64,000 nt of DNA, taken from NCBI GenBank assembly GCA_937974035.1, contig CALJIV010000049.1:10638-74637 (forward strand), read 5' to 3'. The stretch comes from an uncultured Phycisphaerales bacterium (GTDB lineage: Bacteria > Planctomycetota > Phycisphaerae > Phycisphaerales > UBA1924). Of the stretch, positions 14,740 through 33,166 are shown in pieces. Numbering within the stretch: position 1 is the first letter of the stretch; each line of letters begins with the position of its first letter. The notes under the pieces are model-generated. The model did no database searches, had not been told where the DNA came from, and worked only from the letters and a program-made list of their open reading frames with translations. Both the position numbers and the translations under genes were made by a program.

Positions 14740-14762
14740 GCAAGTGGAGAATCAGGGCCGAC

Positions 14763-14791
14763 TTGACGACGCGCCGAGGTGCTCGTAGGTT
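14763..14791 (+). promoter_or_regulatory. candidate sigma70-like promoter upstream of tpsB
   Basis: TTGACG (14763..14768), a 17-nt spacer, then TAGGTT (14786..14791), inside the 190-bp gap between tagF and tpsB. This is motif resemblance only, and promoter rules for this lineage are unknown. Confidence 0.2.
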
Positions 14792-14928
14792 TGACCCCTC
14801 ATGCCGGTGACGTCCGCCGGCAGGTAGCAGGCCGCGCCCGGTCTGCCTGGCCGGTTCTCCGTGCGCCAGGGGGGACAAAGATCGGAGGGGGTCTGGCGGT
14901 GAGCCAAGGAAGCAGAAAAGGAACTGAG

Positions 14929-17007
14929 ATGAGGGTCCCAGCATTCCGTCCGCGGGTGTGGCGTGCTCCACGATCCGGCGCCACGTGCCGATGGCTGCGC
15001 GAACGCAGCGTGCTGACCGCGCTCGGCGCGGCGGCCTTGCTCTCTTCCCAGGCTCTGGCGCAGGGGACGCCCGAAGATGCGCGCAAGCCTGCGATCGACA
15101 TCAACGCGGTGCAGCCCGCGCCCGGCCAGCCTCCCGCTGAGCCCGCTCCGGGCGAGTCCCTCGACGCGCCTCCGGGCACGGCGACCGAGCGCGACGGCGG
15201 ACGCTACCCCGTCTCCCGCTTCCTCATTGAGTATCACAGCGAGCACCCCGAGCACCCGTCCATCGACGATCTCATGGAGGCGGTGGTGCGCCTGGGCGTC
15301 ACGCCCGACGGCTACGTCGCGTACCGCGAGGGGATGCCCTCGGCGGAGCTGCGCATCGCGGACGTGGTGGAGGGCACCGGCGGCGTGTTCTATCGCAGCG
15401 CGCTCAACTCTGTGGCCCGCGCCATCGTCGAGCGGCTGAACAGGAAGGGCTTCATCGGCATCTTCGTGCAGCTCCACCCCGACGACATCGACGAGACCAA
15501 CGGGGCGGACCTGCGCGCGGGCAAGCGCCCCGAGCTGCGGCTGGTCGTGTGGACGGGCGTCGTGAAGAACGTCCGCACCATCACCTCCGGCGACCGCCTG
15601 AAGAAGGAGGTGGACGCGGGGCTGGTCGATCGCGTCAACACCGATGACCCGGTGCTGAACCGCATCCGCGATCAATCGCCGCTGCAGGTGGACAACCTGC
15701 TGCGCAAGGACCTGATGGACGACTTCGTCTTCCGCCTCAACCGCCACCCCGGCCGGCGCGTGGACGTGGCGATCTCCCCCGGCGAGAACCCGGAGGAGGT
15801 GGTGGTGGACTACCTCGTCTCCGAGGCCAAGCCCTGGTCCATCTATGCCCAGCTCTCCAACACGGGCACCAAGGCCACGAACCAGTGGCGCGAGCGCTTC
15901 GGCTTCGTGCACAACCAGCTCACCGGGCACGACGACGTGCTTCGCGTGGACTACATCACCGGCGGCTTCCAGGACTCGCACTCGGTGGCCGTGAACTACG
16001 AGTTCCCGCTGCTCTCCGACCGTCTGCGGTTGCGGACCTACGGCGCGTTCGCGACGTTCGAGGCGTCCGAGGTCGGCCTGTCCGACGAGTCCTTCTCGGG
16101 GACGACGTTCTCCGCGGGCGCGGAGCTGTCGGGCACCATCTTCCAGCACCGCGAGCTGTTCATCGACGCCGTCGGCGGCATCCGCTGGGAGAACATCCAC
16201 GTCGAGAACGAGACGTTCGTGACCGAGGCGAGGGAGAACTTCGTGATTCCCTACGTGGGCCTGCGGCTCGACCGCGCCACCGAGGCCGCGACGACCTACG
16301 CCACCGTCACGATGGAGTTCCAGGTGCCCGAGCTCGCGGGCACCGACGAGGACGAGATCGACTTCCTCGGACGTCCCGAGGTGGACGACCACTGGCAGGT
16401 GCTCAAGTTCTCCTTCGAGCAGTCCTTCTACCTCGAGCCGCTGTTCAACCCCGGCGGCTACAGCGGACGCAGCGCCCGCGGCCCGCTCACGCTCGCGCAC
16501 GAGATCGCCTTCTCCGCGCGCGGCCAGTGGGCCTTCGGCGCGCGTCTGATCCCCAATGAAGAGGAAGTCGCCGGCGGCTTCTTCTCCGTCCGCGGCTACC
16601 CCGAGTCGGTGGTGGCGGGCGACAACACCGTGATCGCCTCGCTCGAGTACCGCTTCCACCTTCCCCGGGTCTTCCCCGTGAGCGACCCGGGCACGCTGTT
16701 CGGAAGGGAAGTGGGTTTCCTTGGGAAAGACTTCCGATACGCCCCGCAGCAGCCCTTCGGGCGTGCCGACTGGGACCTGGTCTTCAAGGCGTTCATCGAC
16801 GCGGCGCGGACGGAGAACAACGACCCGCAACCCGGCGAGAACGACCACACCCTTGTTGGCGCGGGACTCGGAATCGAGTATCAGTTCAAGCGCAACGTCA
16901 GTGCTCGGCTGGAGTACGGGTTCCCGTTCGAAGTCGTTCGGGATGAATCGGAGAACGTGGACGTCGGCGACGGCCGCTGGCACTTCTCCCTGACGCTTCT
17001 GTACTGA
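14929..17007 (+). CDS. tpsB: two-partner secretion outer-membrane transporter (TpsB; ShlB/FhaC/HecB family)
   Basis: 692 aa from the ATG at 14929, with AAGGAA motifs upstream. Signal peptide ends ...SSQALAQG. Length and beta-barrel-like C-terminus ending in an aromatic residue (SLTLLY) fit the family. It lies immediately upstream of a TPS-domain giant protein. Confidence 0.8.
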   Translation: MRVPAFRPRVWRAPRSGATCRWLRERSVLTALGAAALLSSQALAQGTPEDARKPAIDINAVQPAPGQPPAEPAPGESLDAPPGTATERDGGRYPVSRFLIEYHSEHPEHPSIDDLMEAVVRLGVTPDGYVAYREGMPSAELRIADVVEGTGGVFYRSALNSVARAIVERLNRKGFIGIFVQLHPDDIDETNGADLRAGKRPELRLVVWTGVVKNVRTITSGDRLKKEVDAGLVDRVNTDDPVLNRIRDQSPLQVDNLLRKDLMDDFVFRLNRHPGRRVDVAISPGENPEEVVVDYLVSEAKPWSIYAQLSNTGTKATNQWRERFGFVHNQLTGHDDVLRVDYITGGFQDSHSVAVNYEFPLLSDRLRLRTYGAFATFEASEVGLSDESFSGTTFSAGAELSGTIFQHRELFIDAVGGIRWENIHVENETFVTEARENFVIPYVGLRLDRATEAATTYATVTMEFQVPELAGTDEDEIDFLGRPEVDDHWQVLKFSFEQSFYLEPLFNPGGYSGRSARGPLTLAHEIAFSARGQWAFGARLIPNEEEVAGGFFSVRGYPESVVAGDNTVIASLEYRFHLPRVFPVSDPGTLFGREVGFLGKDFRYAPQQPFGRADWDLVFKAFIDAARTENNDPQPGENDHTLVGAGLGIEYQFKRNVSARLEYGFPFEVVRDESENVDVGDGRWHFSLTLLY

Positions 17008-17094
17008 GCGGCGATAGAGGTACGAACAGGCATCAATCGTCCCGCGCGGGCCAGGAAGGGCCCCCGGGGCTGAACGAGACACGAGGGCAGGGTT

Positions 17095-20000
17095 ATGGCG
17101 AACGGCACGAACCGGACAAGCAACAGGACCGAGCGGGCGGCGTCGCTGGTGCGCGCGGCGGAATGGGTCAGCCGCGGCAGCCTCCTTGGCATCGGGCGCG
17201 GGGCGGGCTGGACGGGCGCGCTCGGCGGCGCGCTGATCGCCGCGGTCTGCTCGCACGCCCTCGCCGGCCCCGAGGGGGCGCAGGTCGTCCGGGGGCAGGT
17301 GGACATCACCCGCAACGGCTCCGAGACCATCATCCGGGCGGGCCACAACAGCATCATCAACTACCGGAGCTTCGACATCGCCGGGCATGAGTCCGTGCGG
17401 TTCATCCAGCCCAACTCCTCCTCGCGCGTCCTCAACCGCATCAACAGCGCCGCGCCCACGCGCATCGACGGGGCCCTCACCGCCAACGGTCGCGTGTACA
17501 TCGTCAACCCCGCGGGCGTGATCTTCGGCAACGGCGCGCGCGTCAACGTCGCCGGGCTGTATGCCGCGGGCGGCAAGCTCAGCAACGCCGACTTCGTCGC
17601 GGGTCGCAACCGGTTCACCGATCTGACGGGCGAGGTGGTCAACCACGGCTCGATCACCGCGGACTTCGCGGGGCTGATCGGCCATCGCGTGTACAACTCC
17701 GGGAGCATCGTCGCGCCCGAGGGCACGGTCGTCATGGCCGCGGGCCCGGAGGTCATGGTCGGCGAGCGCACCGGCAACATCTTCGTGAAGGTCACCGGGC
17801 CGTCGAAGAAGGCGGACGGGACGGCCATCGACAATGCGGGCCTCGTGGAAGCCGCGGGCGGGCGCGTGATGATGGGCGCCGGCGACATGTACTCGCTGGC
17901 GGTGCGCACCACCGGGCACGTGAAGGCGAAGGAGATCGACGTCGGTCTGGGCAAGGGCCACGTCGCGGTCTCCGGCGTGCTCGACGCCTCGAACCAGGGC
18001 CAGGGCGGGACCGGCGGTCGCGTCCACGTGCTGGGCGAGACCATCGCGCTGACCGGCGCCACGATCGACGCCTCCGGTGAGCAGGGCGGAGGACAGGTCC
18101 GCGTGGGCGGCGACTTCCAGGGTCGGGGGGACCTGCCCCACGCCGGCGTCGTCACGGTGGACAAGGAGAGTTCCATCAACGTCTCCGCCCAGCGCCAGGG
18201 CGACGGCGGCACGGCCATCGTCTGGTCCGACCACTTCACCGCCTACTACGGCCAGGCCGAGGCCCGCGGCGGGTCCGAGGGCGGCAACGGCGGTCTCATC
18301 GAGACGTCCAGCAAGAACGTCGTTGATCTGGCTCCCACCTTCATCGATGCCTCCGCGGCCAAGGGCAAGGGCGGCAACTGGCTGATCGATCCTCGCAACG
18401 TCACCATCAGCGATGCCGCGCCGAGTCACGTCGGCGCCGGCCCCAACTTCGCTCCGGACAACAGTGGCCCTCCTGGTGAGTCGTCGAACGTCCAGGTCTC
18501 GACCATCGAAGCGGCCCTCAACGCAGGCACCAGCGTCACGGTCACGACAGCGGGCAGCGGTACGGGGCAACCCGGTCATATCACGGTCCTCGACAGCATC
18601 GAGAAGACCGGCGGCGCCGACGCCACGCTCACGCTCACCGCGATGGGCAACATCACGATCAACGAGCTCGACACGGGCGGCGACCCGCTCGTGATTTCCT
18701 CTTCGGCGGGAGCGCTGGGGGTCATTCTGCAGGCCAACGCCGACGGCGGCGCGGGTCATGCCGCCACCGGCTCGGGCTCGGTCTTCCTCAACGGCAGCAT
18801 CGTCACCAACGGCGGCGTGTTCACCAGCTCGGGCGTGAACTTCACGTCCACATCGACAGGCACGGTGGACACCACCGGCGCGACCAACGGCGCCATCACC
18901 CTCAACCACACCGGCGCGGTCTCGATCGGCGGGACCATGACCGGCGGGGCCATCGACATCGATGCGGGCTCGACGATCAGCCTCGGCGCTGACCTCATCA
19001 CGAGCGCGGGGACGGTCCGCTTCCGTGATCCGGTGATCCTCACCGACGATGTGATCATCGACACCACCGACGGCGGCAACGCCGCCGCCGGCGCGAGCAT
19101 CTCCTTCGACAGCACGCTCGACGGCACGACCGCGAACGAGGAGGACCTGCAGCTCAACGCGGGCACGGGCGGGAACATCACCATCGCCGGCGCGGCGGGC
19201 GGCACGACCCGGCTCGGTCTGCTGAACATCGTCAACGCGAACGACGTGACCACCGGCGCGCTCACGCTCGGCGGCCTGGTGCAGAATGACGGTCAGGGCC
19301 TCAGCACTTTCGACGGTGCGGTGAACACCAACGCCGGCGGCGTGGTGGTGACGGGCAACAACTTCACCTTCACCGGCACGGTGACCACCGGCGCGGGCGG
19401 TGAGCTCTTCTCCACCAACGCCGGTGCGCTGGTCCTTGGTGCGGGCGCGAACCTCGACGGCAGTCTTGTGCAGGCCGGCGGCGGGAGCATCACCGTTACC
19501 GGCAACATCACGACCACCAACGACAACATCGGCATCGCGGGCGACCTGATCCTCACCGGCTCTTCGACCTTCGACGCGGGCACGGGCACCATCGCCCTGA
19601 GCGGCGCCGCGGACCTGGGCACGGGCACCGTCATCTTCAACGCGGACTCGATCAACTTCAACGGCGGCGCGAACTCCGTCTCCGGCACGGGCACGCTGAC
19701 GCTGCGCCCCAGCACCAACGGAGCGAGCATCAGCGTCGGCACGGGGGGCGGCGATCTCGAGCTGACCGCAGCGGACATGGCCGCGCTCGCCGACGGCTTC
19801 ACGCAGATCAACATCGGGCGCGCGGGCACGGGCGAGCACGAGATCACGATCGGCACGCTGGCGATCCGCGACCCGATGGTCTTCCACGCCTCCGCGGCGG
19901 GCGGCTCCGTGGTCGTCAACGGCAACATCACGGGAACGACCAACGGCTCGGTCACGATCAACGGCAGCGGCAACTCGACTACGCTGAACGGGAACATCGT

Positions 20001-23000
20001 CACCGCGGGCGGCGCCATCGCCATCAACGACGGTGTGACCCTGGGCACGAACGTGCAGCTGGACACCACCAACGGCGGCGCGGTCGCCGCGGGCGCGAAC
20101 ATCAGCATCACCGGCGCGGTGAACGCCACGACCAGCGGGACGGAGGGGCTGACGCTCCGCGCGGGCACGGGCGGGGACATCTCGCTCGGCACGGTGGGCG
20201 GCACCACGCGCGTGGGCGCGTTCACCATCACCAGCGCCGATGACGTGAGCGCGGGCGCCATTACCGCGTCCACCATCACCCAGACGGCCGCGACGTCGGC
20301 CACCTACAGCGGGGCGCTGAACACCAACGCCGGGGGCGGCATCAGCCTCACGGGCGGTTCGATCAGCCTCGCGGGCGCGACCACCACCAACGGCGGCGGC
20401 CTGACCATCAACAACAGCGCCGCGCTGAGCATCGACGGGGCGCTGAACCTGGACGGGGCGCTCAGCCAGACCGGCACCGGCACGGTCACGATCTCCAACA
20501 ACATCACCACCACCAACGACGCGGTGTCCTTCGCCTCGAACGTGATTCTCGGCACGGACATCTCGATCGACACCAACTCGGGCACGGGCGCGAACGTCAC
20601 CTTCGGCGGCACGCTCAACGGCACCACCGCGGGTGCGGACAACCTCACCATCAACGCCGGCTCGGGCGACGTGACCTTCACGGGCGCGATCGGCGGATCG
20701 ACCCCGCTGGGCATCCTGACGATCACTTCGGCCGATGACGTCTCCGCCGCCGCGGCGACCTTCCTGCGCATGGTGCAGTCCGCGGGCACGGGCACCACGA
20801 GCTTCAGCGGCGCGGTGAACGCCACCAACGGCGGCCTGAGCCTGACGGGCACGAACTTCACCTTCGGCAGCACGGTCAACACCACGAGCACCTCCGGCCT
20901 GACCGTCGTCGCCACCGGCGCGCTGACCCTCAACGGCGCGGTGAGTCTCGACGGCAGCCTGGTCTTCTCCGGCGGCGGCACCGTCGCCATCAACGCCGAC
21001 GTCACGACCACCAACGACAACATCAGCATCACCGGCAACGCGACCATCGGCGACAGCGTGGAGCTGAGCGTGGGCACGGGCATTATCGCCTTCAGCGGCA
21101 CGCTGGACATGGGCGCCAACGACGTCACCTTCACGGGCGACGAGATCAACTTCAACGGCGGCGCGGACAGTGTGTCGGGCACGGGCGCCATCGTGCTTCA
21201 GCCCGCGACCAGCGGCCTCACGGTCAACGTCGGCAACTCCACCAACAACGCCAACCAGCTCGACCTGCAGATCGGCGACATCAACGCGCTGGCCGACGGC
21301 TTCAGCTCGATCACCATCGGGCGGGCCACCGGCGCGCAGACGATGAACATCAGCGCCTCGCTCTTCAAGGACCCGGTCACCTTCCGCACCGGCAGCGGCG
21401 GGACGGCCACCGTGGCGGGCGCGCTCGCGGGCACCGGCGACGCCTCCTTCACCTTCGATGGCGGCTCGGCGGTCGCGATCAACGCCGCCGTCTCCACCGA
21501 GGGCGGAGCGTTCAGCTCCTCCGGCACCACCTTCACGTCCAGCGCGGCGGGGATCATCAGCACCGGCGGCGGGGCCGTCACCATCGCGCACACCGGCGCG
21601 GTGACCATCAACGGCAACATCTTCGGCGGCGCGCTGGACGTGGACTCCGGGTCCACCATCACCCTGGCGGGCAACGTCACCACCGAGGGCGGCGCCGTCC
21701 GCTTCCGCGACGGGGTGATCCTCACCGACGACGTGGCCATCAACACCACCGCCGACGGCAACACGGCCGGCGCGAACATCACCTTTGACAGCACCGTGAC
21801 CGGCAACTCCGCCGGGAACGAGGACCTGATCCTCATCGCGGGCACGGACGGGGACGTCTCCTTCGGCGGCGCGGTGGGCGGCGCGGCCCGCCTGGGCCAG
21901 CTCTACATCGTCAGCGCGGACATCGTGACCGGCACGAGCGTGAACGCGGTGACCATCCGCCAGGACGAAGGCACGACCAGCACGACCTTCACCGGCGCGC
22001 TGAACACCAACGGCGCGGGCGGCATCACGCTCACGGGCAACGCCTTCTCTCTCAATACGGTGACGACCACCGGCGGCGGCGCGGTCACGATCGACAACTT
22101 GGGCACGCTGACCCTCGGCGGCGCGCTCTCGCTGGACGGGGCGTTCTCTCAGATCGGCCCGGGTTCGACGCAGCTCAACGCCGCGCTCACGACCACCAAC
22201 GACGCCATCAGCTTCGCGGGCGACGTGACGGTGGGGGCCGGCGTGAGCGGCCTGGACGCGGGCACCGCGGGCCTGACCTTCGGCGGCCTGCTCAGCCTGG
22301 GCGCGAACAACTTCACCCTCACCGCCAACTCGCTTGCGTTCAACGGCGGGGCGAACAGCGTCTCCGGCACGGGCACGCTGACCATCCGCGGCGCCACGCC
22401 GGGCACCAACATCGGCGTCGTCGTCACCCCCGCCGGGACCGGCCTCCACATCACCAGCGCCACCTGGGAGGCGCTGGCGGACGGCTTCGCCACGATCATC
22501 GTCGGTCGCCCCGACGGCAGCGGCAACCTCAGCCTGGATTCGATCACCGTGAACGACTCCACGGTGTTCCAGATGCCCAACGGCACCATCAATGTCTACG
22601 GCGTCATCGAAGGCATGGCGGGCGCGTCGCTCACGCTGGTGGGCCACACCCTCTTCGAGACGGGCTCGGGTCTGCATACGCAGGACGAGCAGATCATCAT
22701 CGACGGCGACGTGGTCCTGGACCCCGGCCTCGTCATCATCAGCACCGTCGGCGCGGGGCTCACCGGGGCGGACATCAACATCACCGGCCCCGTCACCGCC
22801 ACCAGCGCCGACACCGCCGCGCTTGCGCTCGACGCGGGCACCAACGGCGACATCGTCATCGCGGGCGACGTAGGCGAGAACGCCGTGCCTCTGCTGTCCT
22901 TCAACGTCGTCAGCGCCAACGACGTGGTGACCGAGGACGTGTACGCCGGCACCATCCTTCAGAGCGTTGGTCTGGGCACGTCCACCTTCGGCCTGCTCCG

Positions 23001-26000
23001 CTCCGGCGCAGGCGGCATCAGCCTCACCGGCACCAACTTCATCCTCAACCAGGGCGCGGCGAGCCTCGGCGGCGGCACGATGACCGTGGACAACTCCGGC
23101 ACGCTGACGCTGAACGGATCGGTCGCCCTGACGGGTTCGTTCACCCAGTCCAACGGCTCCGTCGTCCTCAACGCCAACATCAGCACCACGAACGACGACA
23201 TCACGATCGGCGGCGCGACTACCGCGGGCGGCTTGTTCGCCGCGCTCAACGCGGGCACCGGGACCATCACCCTCGGCAGCACCTTCGATCTGGGCGCGCT
23301 CAACGGCACCTTCACCGCCAACGACATGGCCTTCCTGGGCGGGGCCAACTCCATCACCGGCACCGGCCAGATCACGCTCCAGCCCGGCGCGGCGAACACG
23401 TCGATCGGCATCGCGGGCGGCGCCGGCACGTTCCAGCTCAGCACCGCGGACCTGGCGGCCTTCGCCGACGGCTTCTCGCTCATGACCATCGGCCGCGCCG
23501 ACGGTCAGCACGTCATCAACATCGGCGCGGTCGACTTCCGCGACGCCGTCGTCATCCGCACGCCCTCGGGCGGTTCGATCACCGTCAACGGTGAAATCTT
23601 CGGCGCGGACGACGCCTCCATCACCCTCACCAGCGGCGGCACGATCACCCTCGGCAACGACATCATCACCGAGGGCAACGAGATCTCCGTCAGCGGCCCG
23701 ATGGTGCTCTCCGCCTCCGTGCTGCTGGACACCACCGACGGCGGCAACTTCGCGGGCGCCGACCTGACGCTCGACGGCGACATCCAGGGCACGACCGCGG
23801 GCGCTCAGGCGCTCACGCTTGCCTCCGGCAATGGCGACATCTCGCTGGGCGGGAACATCGGCACCACCACGCGCCTTGGATTCCTGACGGTTGACGGCGA
23901 CGTGCAGTACGCCCCGGCGACCGTCATCCGTTCCGCCGGCGCGACCTTCAACGGCTCCATCACCGGCAACGACGACATCACCATCGACGCCGGTGCGTTC
24001 GCCCTCACCCTCAACGATGACCTGAACGCAGGCGCGGGCGACGTCACCCTCTCCGGCTCGACGATCACTCAGAACGGTGCGGTGACGGGCGCGAGCTATG
24101 CCGTCCAGGCGCAGAGCGACCTCCACGTCTCCGGCGACATCACGGCGACCGGCGCGGGCGGCGTCCTGCTCAACGCGGGCGTCTCGGGCGCGGGCGACCT
24201 CACCTTCGGTGCGGGCGTTGAGATCCACGCCAACGCCATGACGCTCTCGGCGGGCAACGGCACCGGCGCCTCCATTGTGGACGTGATCACCAACAGCCCG
24301 GTCTTCCGCGGCGCGGCGGGCGGGACGACTTCGCCGACCTTCTTCCAGTTCCGCCAGGACGTGGACATCGACTCGTCCGTGCTGCCCTCGGTCGCCACGC
24401 AGTTCGGCAACGGCATCGCGGGGATGGACTACCGCATCAACGCCCGCAACGGCGCGATCACGATCGACACCGCCGCGAGCGTGGCCGACAGCGCCCTGCG
24501 GCTCACCGCCTCGGACTGGATCGTCATCAGCGACGACCTGCAGCTGGCGTCCCTCCGCGCCACAACGGCGATCGCCTACAACGGCTCCGTCACCACCAGC
24601 GGCGGGGACATCCGTCACGACGCCGCGGTGCAGACCCTCGGCAACGCCCTGCTGGACGCCAACGGCGGCCTGATCTCCTTCTTCAGCACGCTCGCCGTGG
24701 ACGGCCCCTCGCTCACCCTCATCGCGGGCGACATCGACTTCGCGGGCACAGTCACGCCGGGCGCCGCGGCCACGCTCTCCATCCAGCCCTCCGACCCCAC
24801 CAAGGACATCTACCTCGGCGGCACGGGCTCGGAAGGCTCGGGCGACATGCACCTCACCGCGGCTGAAATCGCCCGTCTGGGCGACGGCTTCGCCGACATC
24901 AACATCGGCCGCAGCGACAGCAGCGGGACCATCTACGTCCGCTCCGCCGTCTCCTTCCAGGACCCCGTCACGCTGGTTGCTTCCGAGCCCGGCGCGGCGA
25001 TCCGCGTCGAGGCCCTGCTCGAGGGCACCGACGACGCCTCCATCACGCTCGACGGCTCCGGCGCCACCACGTACCTGCTGGCCGATATCCGCACCGCGGG
25101 CCAGGCCATCACCATCAACGACAACGTGATCGTCGGGGCGGACGTCACGCTCGACGCCACGAACAGCGGCGCGGTCTCCTCCGGCGCTGACATCACCATC
25201 AACGGCGACATCAACGCCGACTCCGAGGCGCAGGACCGCCAGCTCGCCCTCAACGCGGGCGATGCGGGCTTCATCTTCATCCAGAACGTCGGCCTCGACG
25301 AGCGCCTCGGCTCCTTCTCCGCGCTCGCGGACCGCACGTTCGTGCAGAGCGTCCAGACGCTCCACGAGCAGACCTTCACCGGCGATGTCTCGCTCGAGGG
25401 CGACCTCAACTCCAGCGTCTCCGGCGACATCGCCATCAACGGCGACCTCTTCCTCGTCTCCGACGTGTCCATCGACACCGCGGGCGGGGCGGGCGACAAC
25501 ATTCACGTGACCGGCGTGATCGACAGCGACGGAACGGCCCGGAACCTCACGATGAACGCCGGCGCGGGCAGAGTCATCGTGGAGGGGGACATCGGGCAGG
25601 TTCTCGAGATCAACAACCTGAACGTGACGGGCGCAAACAACTCGTTCGCGTCGGTCGCCACCACCGGCGTCCAGAGCTACACCGGCGACACCTCGGTCGG
25701 CGGCGTCCTCAGCGGAACGGCGATCACCTTCAACAACCTGCTCACGCTCACCGAGTCCACCACGCTGGCCGGCAGCGTCTCCGTGAACCTGAACGAGGTC
25801 CTCTCCCAAAATGGCGAGGCCAACGACCTGACCATCGAGTCGCCCGTCACCGTGTTCGGCGGCAACATCGGCAACACCACGGGCGGCGCACTGGGTGAGA
25901 TCACGACCGACGCGGGCGGCACGCTCACGGTCAACGCGTCGCAGGTCCGCTCGATGGGCTCGCAGACCTACGGCGACGCCGTGCTCCTGGGCAGCAACGT

Positions 26001-28707
26001 CACGTTCATCAGCAACGGCGACGTGATCTTCGGGTCCACGGTGGATTCGGCGAGCGGCAACCGCAACCTGACGGTGAACACCGCCGCGGGCAAGTCCACG
26101 ATCTTCGCCGCGGGCGTCGGCCAGACCACGGCCCTGGGCTCGCTGACGACCAACGCGGGCGGCATCGCGTTCTTCGTGGGCAACGTCCGCACCACCGGCG
26201 CTCAGAACATCAACGACGCGGTGATCCTCAACAACAACGTCACCTTCCAGGGCGCGTCGCTCTCCTTCGGCTCCACGATCGATTCGGACGCCACCGCCCG
26301 GGCGCTCACCTTCATCGCCACCGGCGGGCAGGTGACCGTCGCCGACGCGATCGGCAAGGCCAGCCCGCTGGCGAGCCTCACCTCCACCAGCAGCACGGTC
26401 TCGCTCCGCGACGTGGTCACGACCACGGGCCAGAGCATCACCGGCGCGCTGACGCTCAACGGCGACCTGATCTCCACCACCGCCGGGACCATCGACATCA
26501 CCGGCACGCTCACCCTCGACGGCGATTCGTCCATCATCACCGCGGGCGGGTCGAACAACCACGTCACCGTCACCGGCGCGGTGGACGCGACCTCCGGCGG
26601 CCTCACCGTCAACGCCGGCGCGGGCAACGTCAACTTCATCAGCGACGTCGGCCAGAACAACCGACTCGCCTACTTCATCATCAACGCCACCAACATCTCC
26701 GCGCACAAGGTGGCCACCACCGGCGACCAGACCTACAACGGCATCCTGGCCACCGACGGCCAGATGAACGCCTCCGTGGACGGCGACATCACCTTCGGCG
26801 GGAACATCATCCTCAGCGGCGACGTGATCGTCTCCACCGCCTCGGGCGACATCATCTACAACGGCACCGTGAACGGCGCCCACAACCTCATCTCCGCGGC
26901 GACCGGCGGGGCGTCCATCTTCAACGGCGAGGTCGGCGGTCTCACCCGCCTCGCGGGCTTCACCTCCAACGGCCAGACCCGGCTCAACGCTTCCATCGGC
27001 ACCACCGGCGATCAGGTCTACAACGCCGGCGTCGTGCTCGGTGAAGACGTCACGATCGAGGCCAAGAACATCACCTTCAACGGCACGATCAACAGCGACG
27101 ATCCGAGCACGCCCCGCGCCCTCACGGTCAACAGCAGCGGCTCCGGCGAGACCCGCTTCTTCGGCACCGTGGGCGGCACAGCCCCGCTGGCCAGCATCAC
27201 CACCAACACCGACGGCGTCACCAAGATCGGCGCCTCGATGGCCACCACCTCCGGCATGACCTTCGGCGACCCTGTCCGCCTCACCGCCGACGCCACGCTC
27301 AACGGCGGCACGGGCAGCCTCTTCTTCCGCAACGCCATCGACGCCGACGCCACCGCCACCGACCCGGTGCTCATCCTGCTCAGCGACGCCGCGGCGGACG
27401 GCGACAACACCCCCTTCATGTTCAACGCGAGCATCGGCGCGACCCGTCAGCTCGGCGGCCTGACGCTGGGCGCGGACCGCTCTGCCCCCCGCGGCGCGAC
27501 CGCCGTCTTCAGCGACGGCTTCCAGGCCGACGGGACCATCCTCGCCTCCAGCTTCCACAGCGGCGACACCTTCACCATCCGAACCGGCGACGGCGGCTTC
27601 ACGATGGGCCGCGGCCAGAAGCTCACCGCCTTCGGCTCGCTCAACATCACCACGACCGGCACGGCCACGCTCGGCGACCTCACGGCTCTCACGAACATCC
27701 GCGTCGTCGCCGACGCCATCCGCATCCAGCTCCGCCCCGGCGCTCCGGTGCTCGACAACGTGTTCGAGACGCCGACGGACGTGCTCCACAACGACGCGGG
27801 CGTGGACTTCATCGCCGCGGGCACGATCGACTTCAGCGTCGTGCCGACCACGATCGGCTCCGGCGCTCAACCGACGTTCTCGACCGACACCGGCCGCGCT
27901 GACCCGCAGCTCATCAACTTCGGCCACCGCCAGTTCACCGACGGCGTGCGGATCGGTCTTTTCCAGGATCCGCGAGCCGGGCGCGAGGGCCAGCTGATGA
28001 AGCTCGACCTCAAGGGCGAGGGCCCCTCGATCACCAACACCGCGACCACGCTCGCCGGGGCCATCCCGCGCGACAGCGAGACCCGCCAGGTCGCCACGCC
28101 GGTCACCGTCGGCAAGGCCCTCCGCGACCCGCTCCAGGAGATGGGCGTGGCCACCAAGGACCTCTCGGTGGACGACCTCGTGGAGTTCATGGTGGGCCGC
28201 TCGATGTACCGCGACCTGCCGCTCAAGGCGCGTCCGACCATCGCCGGCGGCGACTACCAGGTCACGGTCAACCGCCTCTCCATGAGCACGGTGGAAGCCG
28301 CGGTGGACGCCTACCGCCGCCTGGTGTTCGTCGAAGCGGTGGACGAGAACGGCCGCCCGCAGCTCGACGCCGAGGGTCGGGTGGTGCTCGTGAACCGCAC
28401 CGAGACCATCCGCGACACCCTGGCCGAGGCGTGGGACAACTACAGCATGCAGACCGAAGAGGCCGACGGGGCGGGTTTCCGTGCCTACCTCGAGGAGCGG
28501 TCCACCAGCGGCACGCAGGCCGAGCGCGAGTCCCTGGAGTTCCTGCGGGCCGTCCACGAGGTGCTCCTGCGGCTGGATGCCCTGGGCCTCTCGCCCTTCG
28601 AAACCTCCATCCCGAAGCGCAAGCTTCTGAACGAAATCCGGCCCCCGGCCATGACCGAGGAGCAACTGCACGTGGCCGTCGGCGGCGTCCAGCTTTCCCG
28701 CCGCTAA
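17095..28707 (+). CDS. tpsA: giant TpsA-type exoprotein / filamentous-haemagglutinin-like adhesin (3870 aa)
   Basis: Extended signal region followed by a haemagglutination-activity (TPS) domain: QVVRGQVDITRNGSETIIRAGHNSIINYRSFDIAGHESVRFIQPNSSSRVLNRI...ANGRVYIVNPAGVIFG. About 3000 aa of Gly/Thr/Asn/Ala-rich beta-helix repeats follow. The last ~400 aa are non-repetitive. Confidence 0.9.
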   Translation: MANGTNRTSNRTERAASLVRAAEWVSRGSLLGIGRGAGWTGALGGALIAAVCSHALAGPEGAQVVRGQVDITRNGSETIIRAGHNSIINYRSFDIAGHESVRFIQPNSSSRVLNRINSAAPTRIDGALTANGRVYIVNPAGVIFGNGARVNVAGLYAAGGKLSNADFVAGRNRFTDLTGEVVNHGSITADFAGLIGHRVYNSGSIVAPEGTVVMAAGPEVMVGERTGNIFVKVTGPSKKADGTAIDNAGLVEAAGGRVMMGAGDMYSLAVRTTGHVKAKEIDVGLGKGHVAVSGVLDASNQGQGGTGGRVHVLGETIALTGATIDASGEQGGGQVRVGGDFQGRGDLPHAGVVTVDKESSINVSAQRQGDGGTAIVWSDHFTAYYGQAEARGGSEGGNGGLIETSSKNVVDLAPTFIDASAAKGKGGNWLIDPRNVTISDAAPSHVGAGPNFAPDNSGPPGESSNVQVSTIEAALNAGTSVTVTTAGSGTGQPGHITVLDSIEKTGGADATLTLTAMGNITINELDTGGDPLVISSSAGALGVILQANADGGAGHAATGSGSVFLNGSIVTNGGVFTSSGVNFTSTSTGTVDTTGATNGAITLNHTGAVSIGGTMTGGAIDIDAGSTISLGADLITSAGTVRFRDPVILTDDVIIDTTDGGNAAAGASISFDSTLDGTTANEEDLQLNAGTGGNITIAGAAGGTTRLGLLNIVNANDVTTGALTLGGLVQNDGQGLSTFDGAVNTNAGGVVVTGNNFTFTGTVTTGAGGELFSTNAGALVLGAGANLDGSLVQAGGGSITVTGNITTTNDNIGIAGDLILTGSSTFDAGTGTIALSGAADLGTGTVIFNADSINFNGGANSVSGTGTLTLRPSTNGASISVGTGGGDLELTAADMAALADGFTQINIGRAGTGEHEITIGTLAIRDPMVFHASAAGGSVVVNGNITGTTNGSVTINGSGNSTTLNGNIVTAGGAIAINDGVTLGTNVQLDTTNGGAVAAGANISITGAVNATTSGTEGLTLRAGTGGDISLGTVGGTTRVGAFTITSADDVSAGAITASTITQTAATSATYSGALNTNAGGGISLTGGSISLAGATTTNGGGLTINNSAALSIDGALNLDGALSQTGTGTVTISNNITTTNDAVSFASNVILGTDISIDTNSGTGANVTFGGTLNGTTAGADNLTINAGSGDVTFTGAIGGSTPLGILTITSADDVSAAAATFLRMVQSAGTGTTSFSGAVNATNGGLSLTGTNFTFGSTVNTTSTSGLTVVATGALTLNGAVSLDGSLVFSGGGTVAINADVTTTNDNISITGNATIGDSVELSVGTGIIAFSGTLDMGANDVTFTGDEINFNGGADSVSGTGAIVLQPATSGLTVNVGNSTNNANQLDLQIGDINALADGFSSITIGRATGAQTMNISASLFKDPVTFRTGSGGTATVAGALAGTGDASFTFDGGSAVAINAAVSTEGGAFSSSGTTFTSSAAGIISTGGGAVTIAHTGAVTINGNIFGGALDVDSGSTITLAGNVTTEGGAVRFRDGVILTDDVAINTTADGNTAGANITFDSTVTGNSAGNEDLILIAGTDGDVSFGGAVGGAARLGQLYIVSADIVTGTSVNAVTIRQDEGTTSTTFTGALNTNGAGGITLTGNAFSLNTVTTTGGGAVTIDNLGTLTLGGALSLDGAFSQIGPGSTQLNAALTTTNDAISFAGDVTVGAGVSGLDAGTAGLTFGGLLSLGANNFTLTANSLAFNGGANSVSGTGTLTIRGATPGTNIGVVVTPAGTGLHITSATWEALADGFATIIVGRPDGSGNLSLDSITVNDSTVFQMPNGTINVYGVIEGMAGASLTLVGHTLFETGSGLHTQDEQIIIDGDVVLDPGLVIISTVGAGLTGADINITGPVTATSADTAALALDAGTNGDIVIAGDVGENAVPLLSFNVVSANDVVTEDVYAGTILQSVGLGTSTFGLLRSGAGGISLTGTNFILNQGAASLGGGTMTVDNSGTLTLNGSVALTGSFTQSNGSVVLNANISTTNDDITIGGATTAGGLFAALNAGTGTITLGSTFDLGALNGTFTANDMAFLGGANSITGTGQITLQPGAANTSIGIAGGAGTFQLSTADLAAFADGFSLMTIGRADGQHVINIGAVDFRDAVVIRTPSGGSITVNGEIFGADDASITLTSGGTITLGNDIITEGNEISVSGPMVLSASVLLDTTDGGNFAGADLTLDGDIQGTTAGAQALTLASGNGDISLGGNIGTTTRLGFLTVDGDVQYAPATVIRSAGATFNGSITGNDDITIDAGAFALTLNDDLNAGAGDVTLSGSTITQNGAVTGASYAVQAQSDLHVSGDITATGAGGVLLNAGVSGAGDLTFGAGVEIHANAMTLSAGNGTGASIVDVITNSPVFRGAAGGTTSPTFFQFRQDVDIDSSVLPSVATQFGNGIAGMDYRINARNGAITIDTAASVADSALRLTASDWIVISDDLQLASLRATTAIAYNGSVTTSGGDIRHDAAVQTLGNALLDANGGLISFFSTLAVDGPSLTLIAGDIDFAGTVTPGAAATLSIQPSDPTKDIYLGGTGSEGSGDMHLTAAEIARLGDGFADINIGRSDSSGTIYVRSAVSFQDPVTLVASEPGAAIRVEALLEGTDDASITLDGSGATTYLLADIRTAGQAITINDNVIVGADVTLDATNSGAVSSGADITINGDINADSEAQDRQLALNAGDAGFIFIQNVGLDERLGSFSALADRTFVQSVQTLHEQTFTGDVSLEGDLNSSVSGDIAINGDLFLVSDVSIDTAGGAGDNIHVTGVIDSDGTARNLTMNAGAGRVIVEGDIGQVLEINNLNVTGANNSFASVATTGVQSYTGDTSVGGVLSGTAITFNNLLTLTESTTLAGSVSVNLNEVLSQNGEANDLTIESPVTVFGGNIGNTTGGALGEITTDAGGTLTVNASQVRSMGSQTYGDAVLLGSNVTFISNGDVIFGSTVDSASGNRNLTVNTAAGKSTIFAAGVGQTTALGSLTTNAGGIAFFVGNVRTTGAQNINDAVILNNNVTFQGASLSFGSTIDSDATARALTFIATGGQVTVADAIGKASPLASLTSTSSTVSLRDVVTTTGQSITGALTLNGDLISTTAGTIDITGTLTLDGDSSIITAGGSNNHVTVTGAVDATSGGLTVNAGAGNVNFISDVGQNNRLAYFIINATNISAHKVATTGDQTYNGILATDGQMNASVDGDITFGGNIILSGDVIVSTASGDIIYNGTVNGAHNLISAATGGASIFNGEVGGLTRLAGFTSNGQTRLNASIGTTGDQVYNAGVVLGEDVTIEAKNITFNGTINSDDPSTPRALTVNSSGSGETRFFGTVGGTAPLASITTNTDGVTKIGASMATTSGMTFGDPVRLTADATLNGGTGSLFFRNAIDADATATDPVLILLSDAAADGDNTPFMFNASIGATRQLGGLTLGADRSAPRGATAVFSDGFQADGTILASSFHSGDTFTIRTGDGGFTMGRGQKLTAFGSLNITTTGTATLGDLTALTNIRVVADAIRIQLRPGAPVLDNVFETPTDVLHNDAGVDFIAAGTIDFSVVPTTIGSGAQPTFSTDTGRADPQLINFGHRQFTDGVRIGLFQDPRAGREGQLMKLDLKGEGPSITNTATTLAGAIPRDSETRQVATPVTVGKALRDPLQEMGVATKDLSVDDLVEFMVGRSMYRDLPLKARPTIAGGDYQVTVNRLSMSTVEAAVDAYRRLVFVEAVDENGRPQLDAEGRVVLVNRTETIRDTLAEAWDNYSMQTEEADGAGFRAYLEERSTSGTQAERESLEFLRAVHEVLLRLDALGLSPFETSIPKRKLLNEIRPPAMTEEQLHVAVGGVQLSRR
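18700..27450 (+). repeat. degenerate in-frame super-repeats inside tpsA (approximate bounds)
   Basis: The motif A/G-D-G-F-x-x-I-x-I/V-G-R recurs in frame at 19789, 21292, 22477, 23464 and 24880 (residues 899, 1400, 1795, 2124, 2596). ITTTNDxI and FNGGANSVSGTG motifs recur alongside it. Units are ~330-500 aa. Confidence 0.7.
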
Positions 28708-28718: not shown

Positions 28719-28754
28719 TCCGGTGCAGGGGGCGAGGGCCCCCTGCCCGGTTTT
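28719..28754 (+). terminator. rho-independent terminator after tpsA
   Basis: A 9-bp GC stem GCAGGGGGC (28724..28732) pairs with GCCCCCTGC (28737..28745) around a 4-nt loop. Outer CCGG/CCGG pairs extend it, and TTTT follows at 28750..28753. Confidence 0.7.
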
Positions 28755-28781: not shown

Positions 28782-29843
28782 GTGGCTGTAGTCAACGTTG
28801 AAAGCCTGCTCAAGCCTCTCTCCGAAGAGAACCCGACCGGCGAGAACCTGCGCTGGGACCGCCGATACCTCGAGATCGAGCGTCTCGCCGAGGGCAAGGA
28901 GGAGACACAGTTCTCCGCCGCGGAAGAGCCCGATTGGCGCGAAGTCCGCGACGGGTGCGTCGAGCTCTTCGCCCGCGGCAAGCACCTCCGCGTCGCGGTG
29001 CTGCTCACCCTCGCCGCGGTCCGGCTGGAGGGTTATCCGGGCCTTCGTGACGGCCTGAAGCTCATCCACGGCCTGCTGACCGAGTACTGGGATCAGGTCT
29101 ACCCGCAGCTCGACGTCGAGGACAACAACGACCCCACCGAGCGCGTCAACTCCCTTTCCGCCCTCGTCACCCCCCCGGCGACCTACGGCGACAAGATCAA
29201 GTTCCTCGACCGCGTGATGGAAGCGCCCATCTGCGAGTCGCGGCAGCTCGGCCGCTTCTCCATGCGGGACGTCGCCATCGCCGGCGGCACCCTCCAGGTC
29301 CCGGAAGACCCTGACAGACCCAAACCGACGCTCCAGATCATCGACGCGGCGTTCGAGGAGACCGATCCGCAGGTGCTCGAGGAGATCGCCACGGCGATCG
29401 AGGAAGCCTCGGGGTACCTGGACGGGATCGAGGCGATCTTCGACGAGAAGTGCGGTCCGGGTATCGGACCCAGCCCCCAGATCTTCAAGACCATGCTCCG
29501 GGACGCGGGCATTCAGGTCCGGCGGCACATGGCCGGGTGCGAAGCCCTGGCGGAGGAAGAGGGGGGGGCCGAAGAAGCCGATGAAGGGGGCGGCGGCGGC
29601 GGGGGGGGGAAGGGACGCGCGCTGTCCGGGGAAGTCAACTCCCCGCAAGATGCGCTCTTGGCAATGGAGAAGATTTCCCGATATTATGCCGCACACGAGC
29701 CATCCAGTCCGGTGGCGCTGATCATCGCCGCCGCGCAGCAGATGGTCGGGAAGAGTTTCCTGGAGATTTCAAAGGTCCTGACGCCCGATTACGTGTCGAT
29801 GCTTGTTAACATCAGCACCCCGCCGGACGAGTCGAACGACTGA
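28782..29843 (+). CDS. tssA: T6SS protein TssA (ImpA N-terminal domain family)
   Basis: 353 aa with GTG start and GGGGGAG upstream. The N-terminus LLKPLSEENPTGENLRWDRRYLEIE is typical of ImpA_N. An acidic/Gly linker precedes the C-terminal domain. Gene lies directly before tssB-tssC. Confidence 0.88.
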   Translation: MAVVNVESLLKPLSEENPTGENLRWDRRYLEIERLAEGKEETQFSAAEEPDWREVRDGCVELFARGKHLRVAVLLTLAAVRLEGYPGLRDGLKLIHGLLTEYWDQVYPQLDVEDNNDPTERVNSLSALVTPPATYGDKIKFLDRVMEAPICESRQLGRFSMRDVAIAGGTLQVPEDPDRPKPTLQIIDAAFEETDPQVLEEIATAIEEASGYLDGIEAIFDEKCGPGIGPSPQIFKTMLRDAGIQVRRHMAGCEALAEEEGGAEEADEGGGGGGGGKGRALSGEVNSPQDALLAMEKISRYYAAHEPSSPVALIIAAAQQMVGKSFLEISKVLTPDYVSMLVNISTPPDESND

Positions 29844-29891
29844 GTCGTGCGACCGGCGCGGATCGAGCGGGTAGTTTGAAGGGAGTAAGGG

Positions 29892-30389
29892 ATGGCAAAG
29901 GCCAGCAGCCAAAAGTTCATCGCACGGAACCGGGCGCCTCGGGTGCAGATCGAGTATGACCTGGAGCTGTACGGCGCCGAGAAGAAGGTGAACCTGCCCT
30001 TCGTCATGGGCGTGATGGCCGACCTTTCGGGCAAGCCCTCCGAGCCGCTGCCTCCCGTGGCCGATCGCAAGTTCCTTGAGATCGATGTCGATAACTTTGA
30101 CGAGCGGCTGAAGAGCATGAAGCCGCGCGTCGCGTTCCAGGTTCCGAACACCCTGACCGGCGAGGGCAACCTCTCCGTGGACATCACCTTCGAGAGCATG
30201 GCGGACTTCTCCCCCGGGGCGATCGCGAAGAAGATCGAGCCCCTGGCCAAGCTGCTGGAAGCCCGCACGCAGCTCGCCAACCTGCTGACCTACATGGACG
30301 GCAAGGGCGGTGCCGAGCAGCTTCTGAACAAGGTGCTCTCCGATCAGGAACTGCTCAAGAGCCTCGCCTCCGCCCCCAAGCCGAGCTGA
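29892..30389 (+). CDS. tssB: T6SS contractile sheath small subunit TssB (VipA)
   Basis: 165 aa. RVQIEYDLELYGAEKKVNLPFVMGVMADLSG is the conserved TssB core. Confidence 0.95.
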   Translation: MAKASSQKFIARNRAPRVQIEYDLELYGAEKKVNLPFVMGVMADLSGKPSEPLPPVADRKFLEIDVDNFDERLKSMKPRVAFQVPNTLTGEGNLSVDITFESMADFSPGAIAKKIEPLAKLLEARTQLANLLTYMDGKGGAEQLLNKVLSDQELLKSLASAPKPS

Positions 30390-30472
30390 TCCGCCGGTAA
30401 CGCCCCGTGGGGGGACGCCGGCCCCCCGTCCGAGTCGCCTGTTTCCGCCGCACACGCGGGAGGTAGTTCACG

Positions 30473-31966
30473 ATGTCCGAAGCGCAATCTCAATCCGCGG
30501 TCGCCGGCCTTCAACTGGAAGGCAACGACCTCGAGGCCCTGCTCAAGAAAGAGTTCAAGCCCAAGACCAGCAACGCCAAGGAGGCCATCGAGGCCGCGGT
30601 GAAGACCCTCGCCGCCCAGGCCCTGGAGGGCGTCGCGCTCATCTCCGATGATGCGGTCAAGACCATCGAGGCCATCATCGCGGGGATCGACCAGAAGCTC
30701 AGCCAGCAGATCAACCTGATCCTCCACCACGAGGACTTCCAGGCGCTCGAGGGCACCTGGCGCGGCCTGTCCTACCTGGTCAACAACACCGAGACCGACG
30801 AGACGCTCAAGATCCGCGTCCTGAACATCTCCAAGAAGGATCTGGGCAAGACGATCGCCAAGTTCAAGGGCACCGCCTGGGACCAGAGCCCGCTCTTCAA
30901 GAAGATCTACGAAGAAGAGTTCGGCATGCCCGGCGGCCAGCCCTTCGGCGCCATCATCGGCGATTACTACTTCGACCACACGCCGCCGGACGTCGAGATC
31001 CTCAGCGGCATGGCGCAGATCGCCGCGGCTGCCCACGCCCCCTTCATCACCGCTCCCAAGCCCAGCCTCTTCAACATGGAGTCGTGGCAGGAGCTGGCCA
31101 ACCCCCGCGACCTCACCAAGATCTTCCAGTCCGCCGAGTACGCCCCGTGGCGCAGCCTCCGCGAGAGCGAGGACTCCCGCTACATCGGCCTGGCGATGCC
31201 GCGCGTGCTCTCCCGTCTGCCCTACGGCGCCAACACCTCGCCGGTCGAGGAGTTCGCCTTCGAGGAGGACACCGGCTCGGCGGATCACAACAAGTACACC
31301 TGGATGAACTCCGCCTACGCGATGGGCACCAACATCACCCGCGCCTTCAAGCTCTACGGGTGGTGCAGCCGCATCCGCGGCGTGGAGTCCGGCGGTATGG
31401 TCGAGGGCCTGCCCGTCCACACCTTCCCCACCGACGACGGCGGCGTGGACATGAAGTGCCCCACCGAGATCGCCATCACCGACCGTCGCGAGGCGGAGCT
31501 GGCCAAGAACGGCTTCATGCCGCTCAGCCACTGGAAGAACACCGACTACTCCGTGTTCGTCGGCGCTCAGAGCCTTCACAAGCCCGCCGAATACGACGAT
31601 CCGGACGCGACCGCCAACGCCAATCTCGGCGCGCGGCTGCCGTATCTCTTCGCGACCTGCCGCTTCGCGCACTACCTCAAGTGCATGGTGCGCGACAAGA
31701 TCGGCTCCTTCAAGGAGCGCGATTCGCTGGAGAACTGGCTCAACGACTGGATCAAGCAGTACGTGGACGGCGATCCCGCGAACTCCTCCGAGGAGACCAA
31801 GGCCCGCCGTCCGCTCGCCGCGGCGGAGGTCATCGTCGAGGAAATTCCCGGGAACCCGGGCTACTACTCTTCGAAGTTTTTCCTGCGTCCGCACTACCAG
31901 CTCGAGGGCCTCACCGTGTCCCTCCGGCTGGTCTCCAAGCTGCCGTCGGCGAAGTCCGGCGGCTGA
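30473..31966 (+). CDS. tssC: T6SS contractile sheath large subunit TssC (VipB)
   Basis: 497 aa in the typical TssC length range, adjacent to tssB. Conserved-looking segments include WRGLSYLV and PYGANTSPVEEF. Confidence 0.95.
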   Translation: MSEAQSQSAVAGLQLEGNDLEALLKKEFKPKTSNAKEAIEAAVKTLAAQALEGVALISDDAVKTIEAIIAGIDQKLSQQINLILHHEDFQALEGTWRGLSYLVNNTETDETLKIRVLNISKKDLGKTIAKFKGTAWDQSPLFKKIYEEEFGMPGGQPFGAIIGDYYFDHTPPDVEILSGMAQIAAAAHAPFITAPKPSLFNMESWQELANPRDLTKIFQSAEYAPWRSLRESEDSRYIGLAMPRVLSRLPYGANTSPVEEFAFEEDTGSADHNKYTWMNSAYAMGTNITRAFKLYGWCSRIRGVESGGMVEGLPVHTFPTDDGGVDMKCPTEIAITDRREAELAKNGFMPLSHWKNTDYSVFVGAQSLHKPAEYDDPDATANANLGARLPYLFATCRFAHYLKCMVRDKIGSFKERDSLENWLNDWIKQYVDGDPANSSEETKARRPLAAAEVIVEEIPGNPGYYSSKFFLRPHYQLEGLTVSLRLVSKLPSAKSGG

Positions 31967-32545: not shown

Positions 32546-32578
32546 TCGAATCCCTTTTCGTTGGTGTTTGAATCAATA

Positions 32579-33144: not shown

Positions 33145-33166
33145 TCGCGGAGGGATCCCTGGCGTG

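Follow-up and report, generated by a model that had tools for sequence, protein, structure and literature searches.

The described systems closest to the locus treated here are two-partner secretion (TPS) pairs, made up of an exoprotein (TpsA) and its outer-membrane exporter (TpsB), and accessory factors of type VI secretion systems (T6SS). The locus lies in a 64,000-nucleotide stretch of an uncultured Phycisphaerales bacterium (contig CALJIV010000049.1, positions 10,638 to 74,637; hereafter the window), in which a tpsB-tpsA pair is placed inside a T6SS gene cluster, an arrangement that we found to be conserved across relatives. HMW1/HMW1B of Haemophilus influenzae and EtpA/EtpB of enterotoxigenic E. 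coli resemble the window pair in the TPS domain with its adjoining beta-helix, in the order tpsB then tpsA and in a large repetitive passenger; the window TpsA, however, is 2-3 times longer, its shaft and C-terminal domain belong to no Pfam family, and its genes lie inside a T6SS cluster. No HMW1C/EtpC-type glycosyltransferase was found among the scanned open reading frames (ORFs) of the window (only MraY matches), a copy elsewhere in the genome being possible. In FhaB/FhaC of Bordetella, too, the TpsA protein is giant and has a conserved C-terminal region set apart from its shaft, and the FhaB prodomain is a possible analogue of the ~370-aa C-terminal domain of the window TpsA, but there is no sequence similarity in shaft or C-terminus and FhaB has no T6SS linkage. 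CdiA/CdiB is likewise a TPS pair, one that acts in contact between cells through a giant filamentous TpsA; it differs by its pretoxin motif, variable toxin tip, immunity gene and FHA-1/FHA-2 repeats, all of which the window pair lacks.

On the T6SS side, the TagQRST-PpkA-PppA-Fha1-TagF pathway of the P. aeruginosa H1-T6SS is comparable in that accessory genes follow tagF beside the membrane-complex genes. A TagF fold and a TagR-type FGE-like domain are common to both, and in both a coupling of T6SS assembly to contact or envelope events is the presumed purpose. In contrast to the H1-T6SS, the window has no detected kinase, phosphatase, Fha, ABC transporter or TagQ, its TagF and FGE-like domains are fused across the membrane, and the TPS pair occupies the neighbouring position. 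The TagF-TagZ system of Acinetobacter baylyi supplies the best fold match to the window TagF domain (PDB 9t0n), and neither the A. baylyi cluster nor that of the window has Fha or the threonine phosphorylation pathway. In A. baylyi, TagF is recruited to the membrane by a membrane-associated partner and acts there (bioRxiv 10.64898/2025.12.08.692957), whereas most Phycisphaerales would have the membrane anchor by fusion rather than as a separate TagZ, and the TSA accessory genes tagN, tagX and tslA were not found. TasL of Vibrio fischeri and TslA of Acinetobacter are likewise T6SS-encoded accessory factors that promote or sense cell-cell contact, and together with TagQRST they are precedents for accessory contact or target-recognition factors; TasL and TslA are a lipoprotein and a periplasmic protein, however, and neither is a two-partner secreted fibre (PMC13584744).

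How a T6SS senses where and when a target is present is an open question, and the known answers (TagQRST-PpkA, TslA/OmpA, TasL) come from few Proteobacteria. A T6SS accessory-factor review of August 2026 (PMC13584744) contains neither 'two-partner' nor 'adhesin', a 2023 review of the relations between type V and type VI secretion systems (PMC10778856) makes no mention of a TPS pair in a T6SS cluster, and literature searches on T6SS of Phycisphaerae or Planctomycetes, or on TPS genes in T6SS clusters, returned nothing relevant. The TpsA and TpsB superfamilies are already known and the locus is no new kind of machine; what is new is that a TPS pair is kept in a conserved place within a T6SS cluster. 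In an entire order of Planctomycetota a giant two-partner fibre, usually together with a membrane-spanning TagF fusion, is built into the T6SS cluster. This makes the locus a concrete candidate, open to testing, for a contact sensor or physical tether that is coupled to a contractile weapon. The analysis also adds three families, namely a TagF clade missed by sequence models (737 homologues), a TpsA shaft repeat type and a ~370-aa C-terminal domain without known fold; by profile matching, neither the fusion of TagF with the FGE-like domain nor the shaft repeats nor the C-terminal domain belongs to a Pfam or NCBIfam family.

Conserved placement of the TPS pair within the T6SS cluster

The T6SS genes and tpsB-tpsA form one co-oriented cluster on the + strand, with the pair between tssK-L-M plus a tagF-like gene and tssA-B-C-hcp (Table 1). 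A preliminary description, made from the sequence of the window, had recognized the pair and considered it no recent foreign insertion. Both genes stand as described and make up a genuine secretion system of type Vb, with a ShlB barrel in TpsB and a TPS domain in TpsA.

For comparison, one genome per species was scanned with a TpsB alignment, which found relatives in 304 stretches, and the best 80 loci were fetched (cited below by L number) and classified by tblastn with the proteins of the window. Almost all of these 80 species-level genomes with a TpsB relative are Phycisphaerales. The pair itself holds together in 77 of the 80 loci, and of the three exceptions, two break off within ~220 bp of tpsB. 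In 39 loci tssM and a TagF-like gene precede tpsB, and in four the upstream sequence is too short but tssA-B-C follow tpsA; five have the TagF fusion alone upstream with no tssM within 10 kb, 13 cannot be judged, and 19 are stand-alone, a class judged on the fetched locus and not the whole genome, so that a T6SS elsewhere in those 19 genomes is possible. The T6SS-linked state thus accounts for 43 of 67 judgeable loci (~64%), down to ~40% TpsB identity, and the expectation that comparative genomics would find the pair conserved inside this T6SS type is borne out. Gene order in the linked loci is tssL/M, tagF-like, tpsB, tpsA (and tssA-B-C). The order of the window was also seen in two loci looked up independently (L001, L003), in two loci found with TagF as anchor (L089, L090) and in a metagenome locus anchored on TssA (L088), the one informative locus of the only two that a TssA scan of metagenomes gave.

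Linked copies are spread through the whole TpsB neighbour-joining tree (40-88% identity), with the unlinked copies in several nested groups. Rough as it is, the tree suggests an ancestral T6SS linkage that was lost or duplicated away on several occasions. The G+C content, ~68-70% over the window, is 0.68-0.70 across tpsB-tpsA and close to that of the flanks; together with the shared strand, the conserved order and the spread over the TpsB tree, this rules out a recent foreign insertion. In L073, a linked locus from a complete chromosome, genes for a glycosidase and a bicarbonate transporter and purE come after tpsA, a split cluster in which the pair has stayed with tssL-tssM-tagF.

One clade of linked loci (L042, L044, L045, L052, L058) has genes other than tssA downstream of tpsA, in the case of L042 + strand ORFs (499 and 165 aa) without a Pfam family. 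The cluster seems to have been split in this clade. Three contigs with a Phycisphaerales-type locus (L009, L078, L081) are labelled 'Leptolyngbya sp. PLA1' or 'candidatus Brocadiaceae', probably through binning or labelling errors in public records.

Table 1. Features of the TPS pair and surrounding T6SS cluster in the window (residue numbers refer to the encoded protein)
Feature	Position	Strand	Evidence
900-aa paralogue of the fusion's C-terminal ~590 aa (helical region and FGE-like domain)	107..2809	+	BLASTP 33% identity, E 2e-70; weak FGE-sulfatase match
313-aa T6SS-associated protein, no Pfam family	3406..4347	+	homologues in same position in L040-L045, L073, L086, L090, L091
tssK	4409-5824	+	Pfam VasE
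tssL	5844-6536	+	Pfam DotU
tssM, 1499 aa	6561-11060	+	Pfam IcmF-related_N
TagF-transmembrane-FGE fusion, 1217 aa	11086..14739	+	AF2, Foldseek, hydropathy, Pfam
TagF-fold domain of fusion	residues 1-320 (11086-12045)	+	AF2 and Foldseek
Single transmembrane helix of fusion	residues 334-360 (12085-12165)	+	hydropathy
Pro-rich linker and helical region of fusion	between transmembrane helix and FGE-like domain	+	
FGE-sulfatase-like (TagR-type) domain of fusion	residues 912-1187 (13819-14646)	+	PF03781 E 2.3e-9, 37.7 bits (cut-off 23.3)
Intergenic region before tpsB, 189 bp	14740..14928	+	sequence
Weak promoter-like TTGACG-N17-TAGGTT	14763-14791	+	second hexamer 3/6
tpsB, Omp85-family outer-membrane exporter, 692 aa	14929..17007	+	PF03865
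tpsA, 3870-aa exoprotein	17095..28707	+	TPS domain, repeats, C-terminal domain
Putative extended signal peptide of TpsA	residues ~1-57	+	by eye
TPS domain of TpsA	residues 59-283 (17269-17943)	+	PF05860
Diverged repeat shaft of TpsA	residues ~430-3500 (18382-27594)	+	self-comparison
Conserved non-repetitive C-terminal domain of TpsA, ~370 aa	residues 3500-3870 (27592-28704)	+	self-comparison, HMMER
G+C-rich hairpin followed by UUUU, between tpsA and tssA	28719..28754	+	fold energy
Second T6SS half: tssA, tssB, tssC, hcp x2, tagJ/impE, tssE, tssF, tssG, clpV, vgrG	28782..43718	+	Pfam, NCBIfam
Two tandem hcp paralogues, followed by tagJ/impE	32051-33144	+	
tagJ/impE with TPR repeats	33687-34583	+	PF07024, E 1e-37

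The exporter and the predicted fibre

TpsB matches ShlB (PF03865) over residues 297-576 (E 4e-10, 40.1 bits, cut-off 22.7) and Omp85 weakly. Its N-terminus reads as a plausible signal peptide ending in QALA before QG, followed by a Pro-rich linker, and residues ~95-295 are conserved and long enough for two POTRA domains, with no POTRA model match at E ≤ 0.1. Among 499 homologues at E ≤ 0.001, the named ones are hemolysin activation/secretion or ShlB/FhaC/HecB proteins and the organisms named are Phycisphaerales, Phycisphaerae or Planctomycetota; phmmer against PDB sequences gave no solved relative. The gene ends 87 bp upstream of tpsA in the same orientation.

A Pfam scan of the whole TpsA protein was empty, a false negative, since the first 400 aa scanned alone match the TPS domain PF05860 (E 1.9e-26, 93.9 bits, cut-off 33.5) and TIGR01901 (E 1.4e-21), and the NPxG motif is visible as NPAGVIFG. 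Ahead of this domain, inspection by eye shows a hydrophobic stretch ending in GALGGALIAAVCSHALA and followed by GPEG, which was not flagged by the hydropathy scan used here for transmembrane and signal segments (threshold 1.6). The closest solved relatives of the N-terminal 500 aa are EtpA (8vba, E 3e-63, residues 42-498), HMW1 (2odl, E 3.5e-40) and then HxuA, with no CdiA or haemolysin match among solved structures. TpsA is predicted to be exported to the cell surface through TpsB. The shaft of ~3000 aa is rich in G, A, T, S and N and almost without K, W and C. Its repeats are 25-50% identical, with long-period units at residues 530-2400 and shorter ones at 2650-3480. The shaft matches no Pfam repeat family, and no segment of TpsA contains Fil_haemagg-type (FHA-1/FHA-2) repeats at E ≤ 0.1. 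On the opposite strand, a 4639-aa ORF (14752-28671, - strand) was rejected as a shadow ORF of a G+C-rich repetitive gene, as the TPS domain and all homologues are on the + strand.

The preliminary description had further noted that the last part of TpsA is non-repetitive, without VENN-type demarcation and without a small immunity ORF downstream, and each of these points holds. The non-repetitive part measures ~370 aa and contains many charged residues; none of nine variants of the VENN/ELYN-type pretoxin motif occurs in TpsA, and no toxin domain in Pfam or NCBIfam matches its C-terminus. The distance from the tpsA stop to tssA is 74 bp, which leaves no room for an immunity ORF. The remote-homology search proposed for this region was carried out on the C-terminal 371 aa: a word-index homologue search returned one match only, whereas exhaustive HMMER against 1.84 billion representative proteins (E ≤ 0.001) found the domain in 384 clusters, 85 of them at E ≤ 1e-30. 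Among the matches listed, the domain ends at or near the extreme C-terminus, the full-length proteins measuring 887-4615 aa, and nearly all full-length proteins carry the same TPS domain as the window TpsA. Because the C-terminal domain is conserved and co-occurs with the TPS domain, the domain order of the family is by sequence a fixed one: the TPS domain comes first, the shaft varies in length and the C-terminal domain is retained, the reverse of what a polymorphic toxin tip would show. An AlphaFold model of the domain from a 32-sequence alignment (structure prediction was run with database homologues) has a pLDDT of 84.7 and consists of the last beta-helix rungs followed by a helical domain; Foldseek against the PDB found no match at E ≤ 0.001 (best 0.029, TM-score ~0.1-0.2).

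A TagF-fold domain in a predicted membrane-spanning fusion

The gene upstream of the pair had been described as tagF, which is correct at the level of the fold, but it is not a plain tagF and encodes a 1217-aa fusion in which the TagF-like domain is joined by one transmembrane helix to an FGE-like domain. The AlphaFold model of residues 1-320 (pLDDT 92, pTM 0.90) matches A. baylyi TagF (9t0n; E 9.2e-9, probability 1.00, TM-score 0.50) and P. aeruginosa TagF (6iz8/2qnu; E 2.5e-4 or weaker, probability 0.99-1.00). The kinship is visible by fold comparison only: the isolated domain has no Pfam or NCBIfam match even at E ≤ 10, and no TagF came up when PDB sequences were searched with a profile of the TagF-like alignment. 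Of its 737 homologues, the 120 listed are all without a Pfam domain and the named ones are 'hypothetical protein'. A near-invariant motif, FGKHPGWDDHI, lies in the N-terminal ~320 aa of the fusion, a domain that other genomes also encode on its own, in proteins of 290-345 aa. A tagF-like gene stands directly downstream of tssM in the window, in the 39 tssM-linked loci and in five further loci (L085, L086, L089, L090, L091).

The part of the fusion beyond the transmembrane helix, with the FGE-like domain, is predicted to be periplasmic. TagR of the P. aeruginosa H1 system belongs to COG1262 (PMC13584744). Compared with PDB sequences by phmmer, the FGE-like part of the fusion found nothing. We take COG1262 to be the FGE/SUMF1 family. 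Homologues of the 900-aa paralogue at the start of the window stand upstream of the 313-aa gene and tssK/L in seven loci (L045, L049, L063, L079, L082, L090, L091), and the hydropathy scan found no transmembrane segment or signal peptide in the paralogue itself.

In the Kiritimatiellae T6SS of L085 (5278-9311) a free-standing TagF-like gene is followed by two FHA-domain proteins, so this TagF clade occurs both with and without Fha partners. In three of the loci with the fusion and no tssM (L011, L013, L032), the motif is degraded to MGRHPGWPNAI, which suggests relaxed or altered function away from the T6SS.

Possible roles of the fibre

At a probability of about 0.5, we read the TPS pair as an ancient and conserved accessory module of the Phycisphaerales T6SS, with an HMW1/EtpA-like fibre that would act in tethering or in target recognition. 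This fibre is probably a hitherto undescribed accessory part of the weapon. TpsB, as an Omp85-type outer-membrane barrel, would recognize the N-terminal TPS domain of TpsA and thread the protein to the surface, where TpsA would fold into a beta-helical fibre of great length, of the same type as the adhesins HMW1 and EtpA. An adhesin is preferred because the closest solved relatives are EtpA and HMW1 and not CdiA or haemolysin. Since tpsBA is located between tssK-L-M with the TagF-like checkpoint gene and tssA-B-C, it is probably expressed together with the membrane-complex genes and tssA-B-C. The fibre would most likely catch or hold adjacent cells where the T6SS spike, with its short reach, can hit them, and the membrane-anchored TagF domain may also receive information on contact from it. 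That the fibre is displayed at the surface, that it adheres, that it is co-expressed with the T6SS and that it affects T6SS killing are predictions from sequence, and for the functional coupling of fibre and T6SS that the preliminary description had proposed, as a contact adhesin or an envelope signal, the argument is the conserved gene order.

Several observations weigh against this reading. Nineteen species carry the same TPS family alone, among housekeeping genes, and the fibre can therefore exist without an adjacent T6SS. Loci with the same T6SS but without the pair, which the preliminary description had named as the counter-case, do occur, though only outside Phycisphaerales: the same TagF-like gene without a TPS pair is found in T6SS loci of Kiritimatiellae (L085), Sedimentisphaerales (L086) and an unplaced genome (L091). 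No receptor-binding domain is recognizable in TpsA, and the hairpin after tpsA could separate the transcripts of the pair and of tssA.

A more elaborate possibility, which we hold only tentatively, is a contact sensor without a kinase: strain on TpsA/TpsB would be read by the periplasmic helical and FGE-like part of the fusion, and the cytoplasmic TagF domain would then lift its block on assembly locally, doing the job of TagQRST-PpkA-Fha/TagF in P. aeruginosa. Were this unlikely relay real, the checkpoint would be lifted exactly where prey is touched, and it would be the first type V system to aim a type VI system. The domain composition of the fusion, a TagF fold joined by one transmembrane helix to a TagR-type (COG1262) domain, speaks for such a relay. 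The fusion is directly upstream of tpsB in most linked loci, and the trio of fusion, tpsB and tpsA stays together outside the T6SS in five genomes, with one end-to-end fusion homologue upstream of the TPS pair there. Fha, PpkA and PppA were not found in the window by Pfam and NCBIfam ORF scans, and Fha-less TagF is an assembly checkpoint needing membrane recruitment by TagZ (bioRxiv 10.64898/2025.12.08.692957), an anchor that is here built in. The conserved C-terminal domain of TpsA could remain in the periplasm. Both the FhaB prodomain, which controls maturation, and the C-terminal half of CdiA stay there. The same C-terminal domain is, however, equally present in stand-alone TpsA copies, and 12 loci have a free-standing TagF-like protein (~290-345 aa) upstream of tpsB, with no periplasmic part. 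The FGE-like paralogue, lacking an export signal, appears cytoplasmic, so that an FGE-like domain need not be periplasmic, and an FGE-like protein also occurs beside a T6SS without the TPS pair (L091). The degraded TagF motif of fusion-only loci counts against a relay as well.

That the fibre has no direct coupling to the T6SS, being an ordinary adhesin inserted once in an early Phycisphaerales ancestor and kept by inertia or by shared regulation of a surface lifestyle, we consider improbable. The stand-alone copies beside housekeeping genes, the T6SS loci of neighbouring lineages without the pair and the strong hairpin after tpsA in the window would all fit such hitch-hiking. Against it, the order persists at ~40% TpsB and ~33-45% TssM identity and outlasts both fusion and fission of TagF and the splitting off of tssA-BC, and the linked copies are not one young clade; an order that persistent despite divergence and rearrangement is hard to explain without selection.

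Still less credible is a structural role in which TpsB, with or without TpsA, replaces TssJ as the outer-membrane part of the T6SS membrane complex. It would account for the lack of a TssJ/SciN model match in any scanned ORF of the window, for an unusually long TssM (1499 aa) whose periplasmic two thirds are unrecognizable (TIGR03348 covers only the N-terminal ~450 aa, under its cut-off, and the C-terminal 499 aa scanned alone match no Pfam family), and for the pair staying with tssL-tssM when the cluster is split. Yet the Sedimentisphaerales and Kiritimatiellae loci show neither a TPS pair nor a recognizable TssJ, a pore does not require a ~3000-aa fibre, and some functional T6SSs, for example that of Acinetobacter, have no TssJ.

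Finally, that TpsA is CdiA-like and delivers a C-terminal toxin to neighbours as a second contact-dependent weapon can be dismissed despite its giant size, its non-repetitive C-terminal region and a surrounding locus devoted to antagonism, for a conserved C-terminus (384 clusters) with a confident model lacking a PDB match, the same TPS domain in nearly all full-length relatives, the absence of pretoxin motif, toxin family and FHA-1/FHA-2 repeats, and a 74-bp gap in which no immunity gene fits rule out a toxin tip. Hitch-hiking, TssJ replacement and a toxin are all three less likely than the tether or sensor readings.

Transcription signals around the pair

The promoter-like element reported upstream of tpsB turned out to be weak, its -10 hexamer matching at three of six positions, and the consensus promoter scan of the tpsB upstream region returned 0 sites. 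The 'clean terminator' placed after tpsA was half right: the hairpin is real, with the surrounding 58 nt (28708-28765) folding at -31.4 kcal/mol (z -4.07), but it ends in four U only, fails a terminator scan that requires five T, and is not conserved. It is possibly a partial terminator or a transcript stabilizer. The tpsA-tssA gap measures 34-119 bp in five relatives, of which three lack a strong hairpin. Gaps of this size fit one transcription unit, and co-transcription of tpsBA with the tss genes is plausible on these distances. The best sigma-70-like match in the region (29658-29687, TTGGCA-N18-TATTAT, 10/12) falls within the 3' end of tssA, shortly before tssB; two such sites were found in that region against 0.1 expected.

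Flanking T6SS genes

Of the 13 core genes canonical for T6SS subtype i, the window has those for TssA, B, C, Hcp, E, F, G, ClpV, VgrG, K, L and M, with no TssJ detected in any ORF scanned. ORF scans found no kinase, phosphatase, FHA-domain or ABC-transporter genes in the cluster, and no PAAR protein was identified among the scanned ORFs of the window. In Phycisphaerales, in Sedimentisphaerales and in an unplaced genome, the conserved gene for the ~313-aa protein closely precedes tssK (or tssL) (L086 2562-3500, L090 2458-3399, L091 2104-3048). On the 3' side of vgrG, the region 43734-50185 encodes three small PG_binding_1 proteins (44142-44753, 44750-45277, 47311-48015), a HEAT-repeat protein, a 386-aa protein with faint reprolysin-like metallopeptidase matches and a 725-aa amidohydrolase-domain protein, which are candidate effector or immunity genes. 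Beyond the vgrG region the window continues with the housekeeping genes dprA, queA, murE, murF and mraY.

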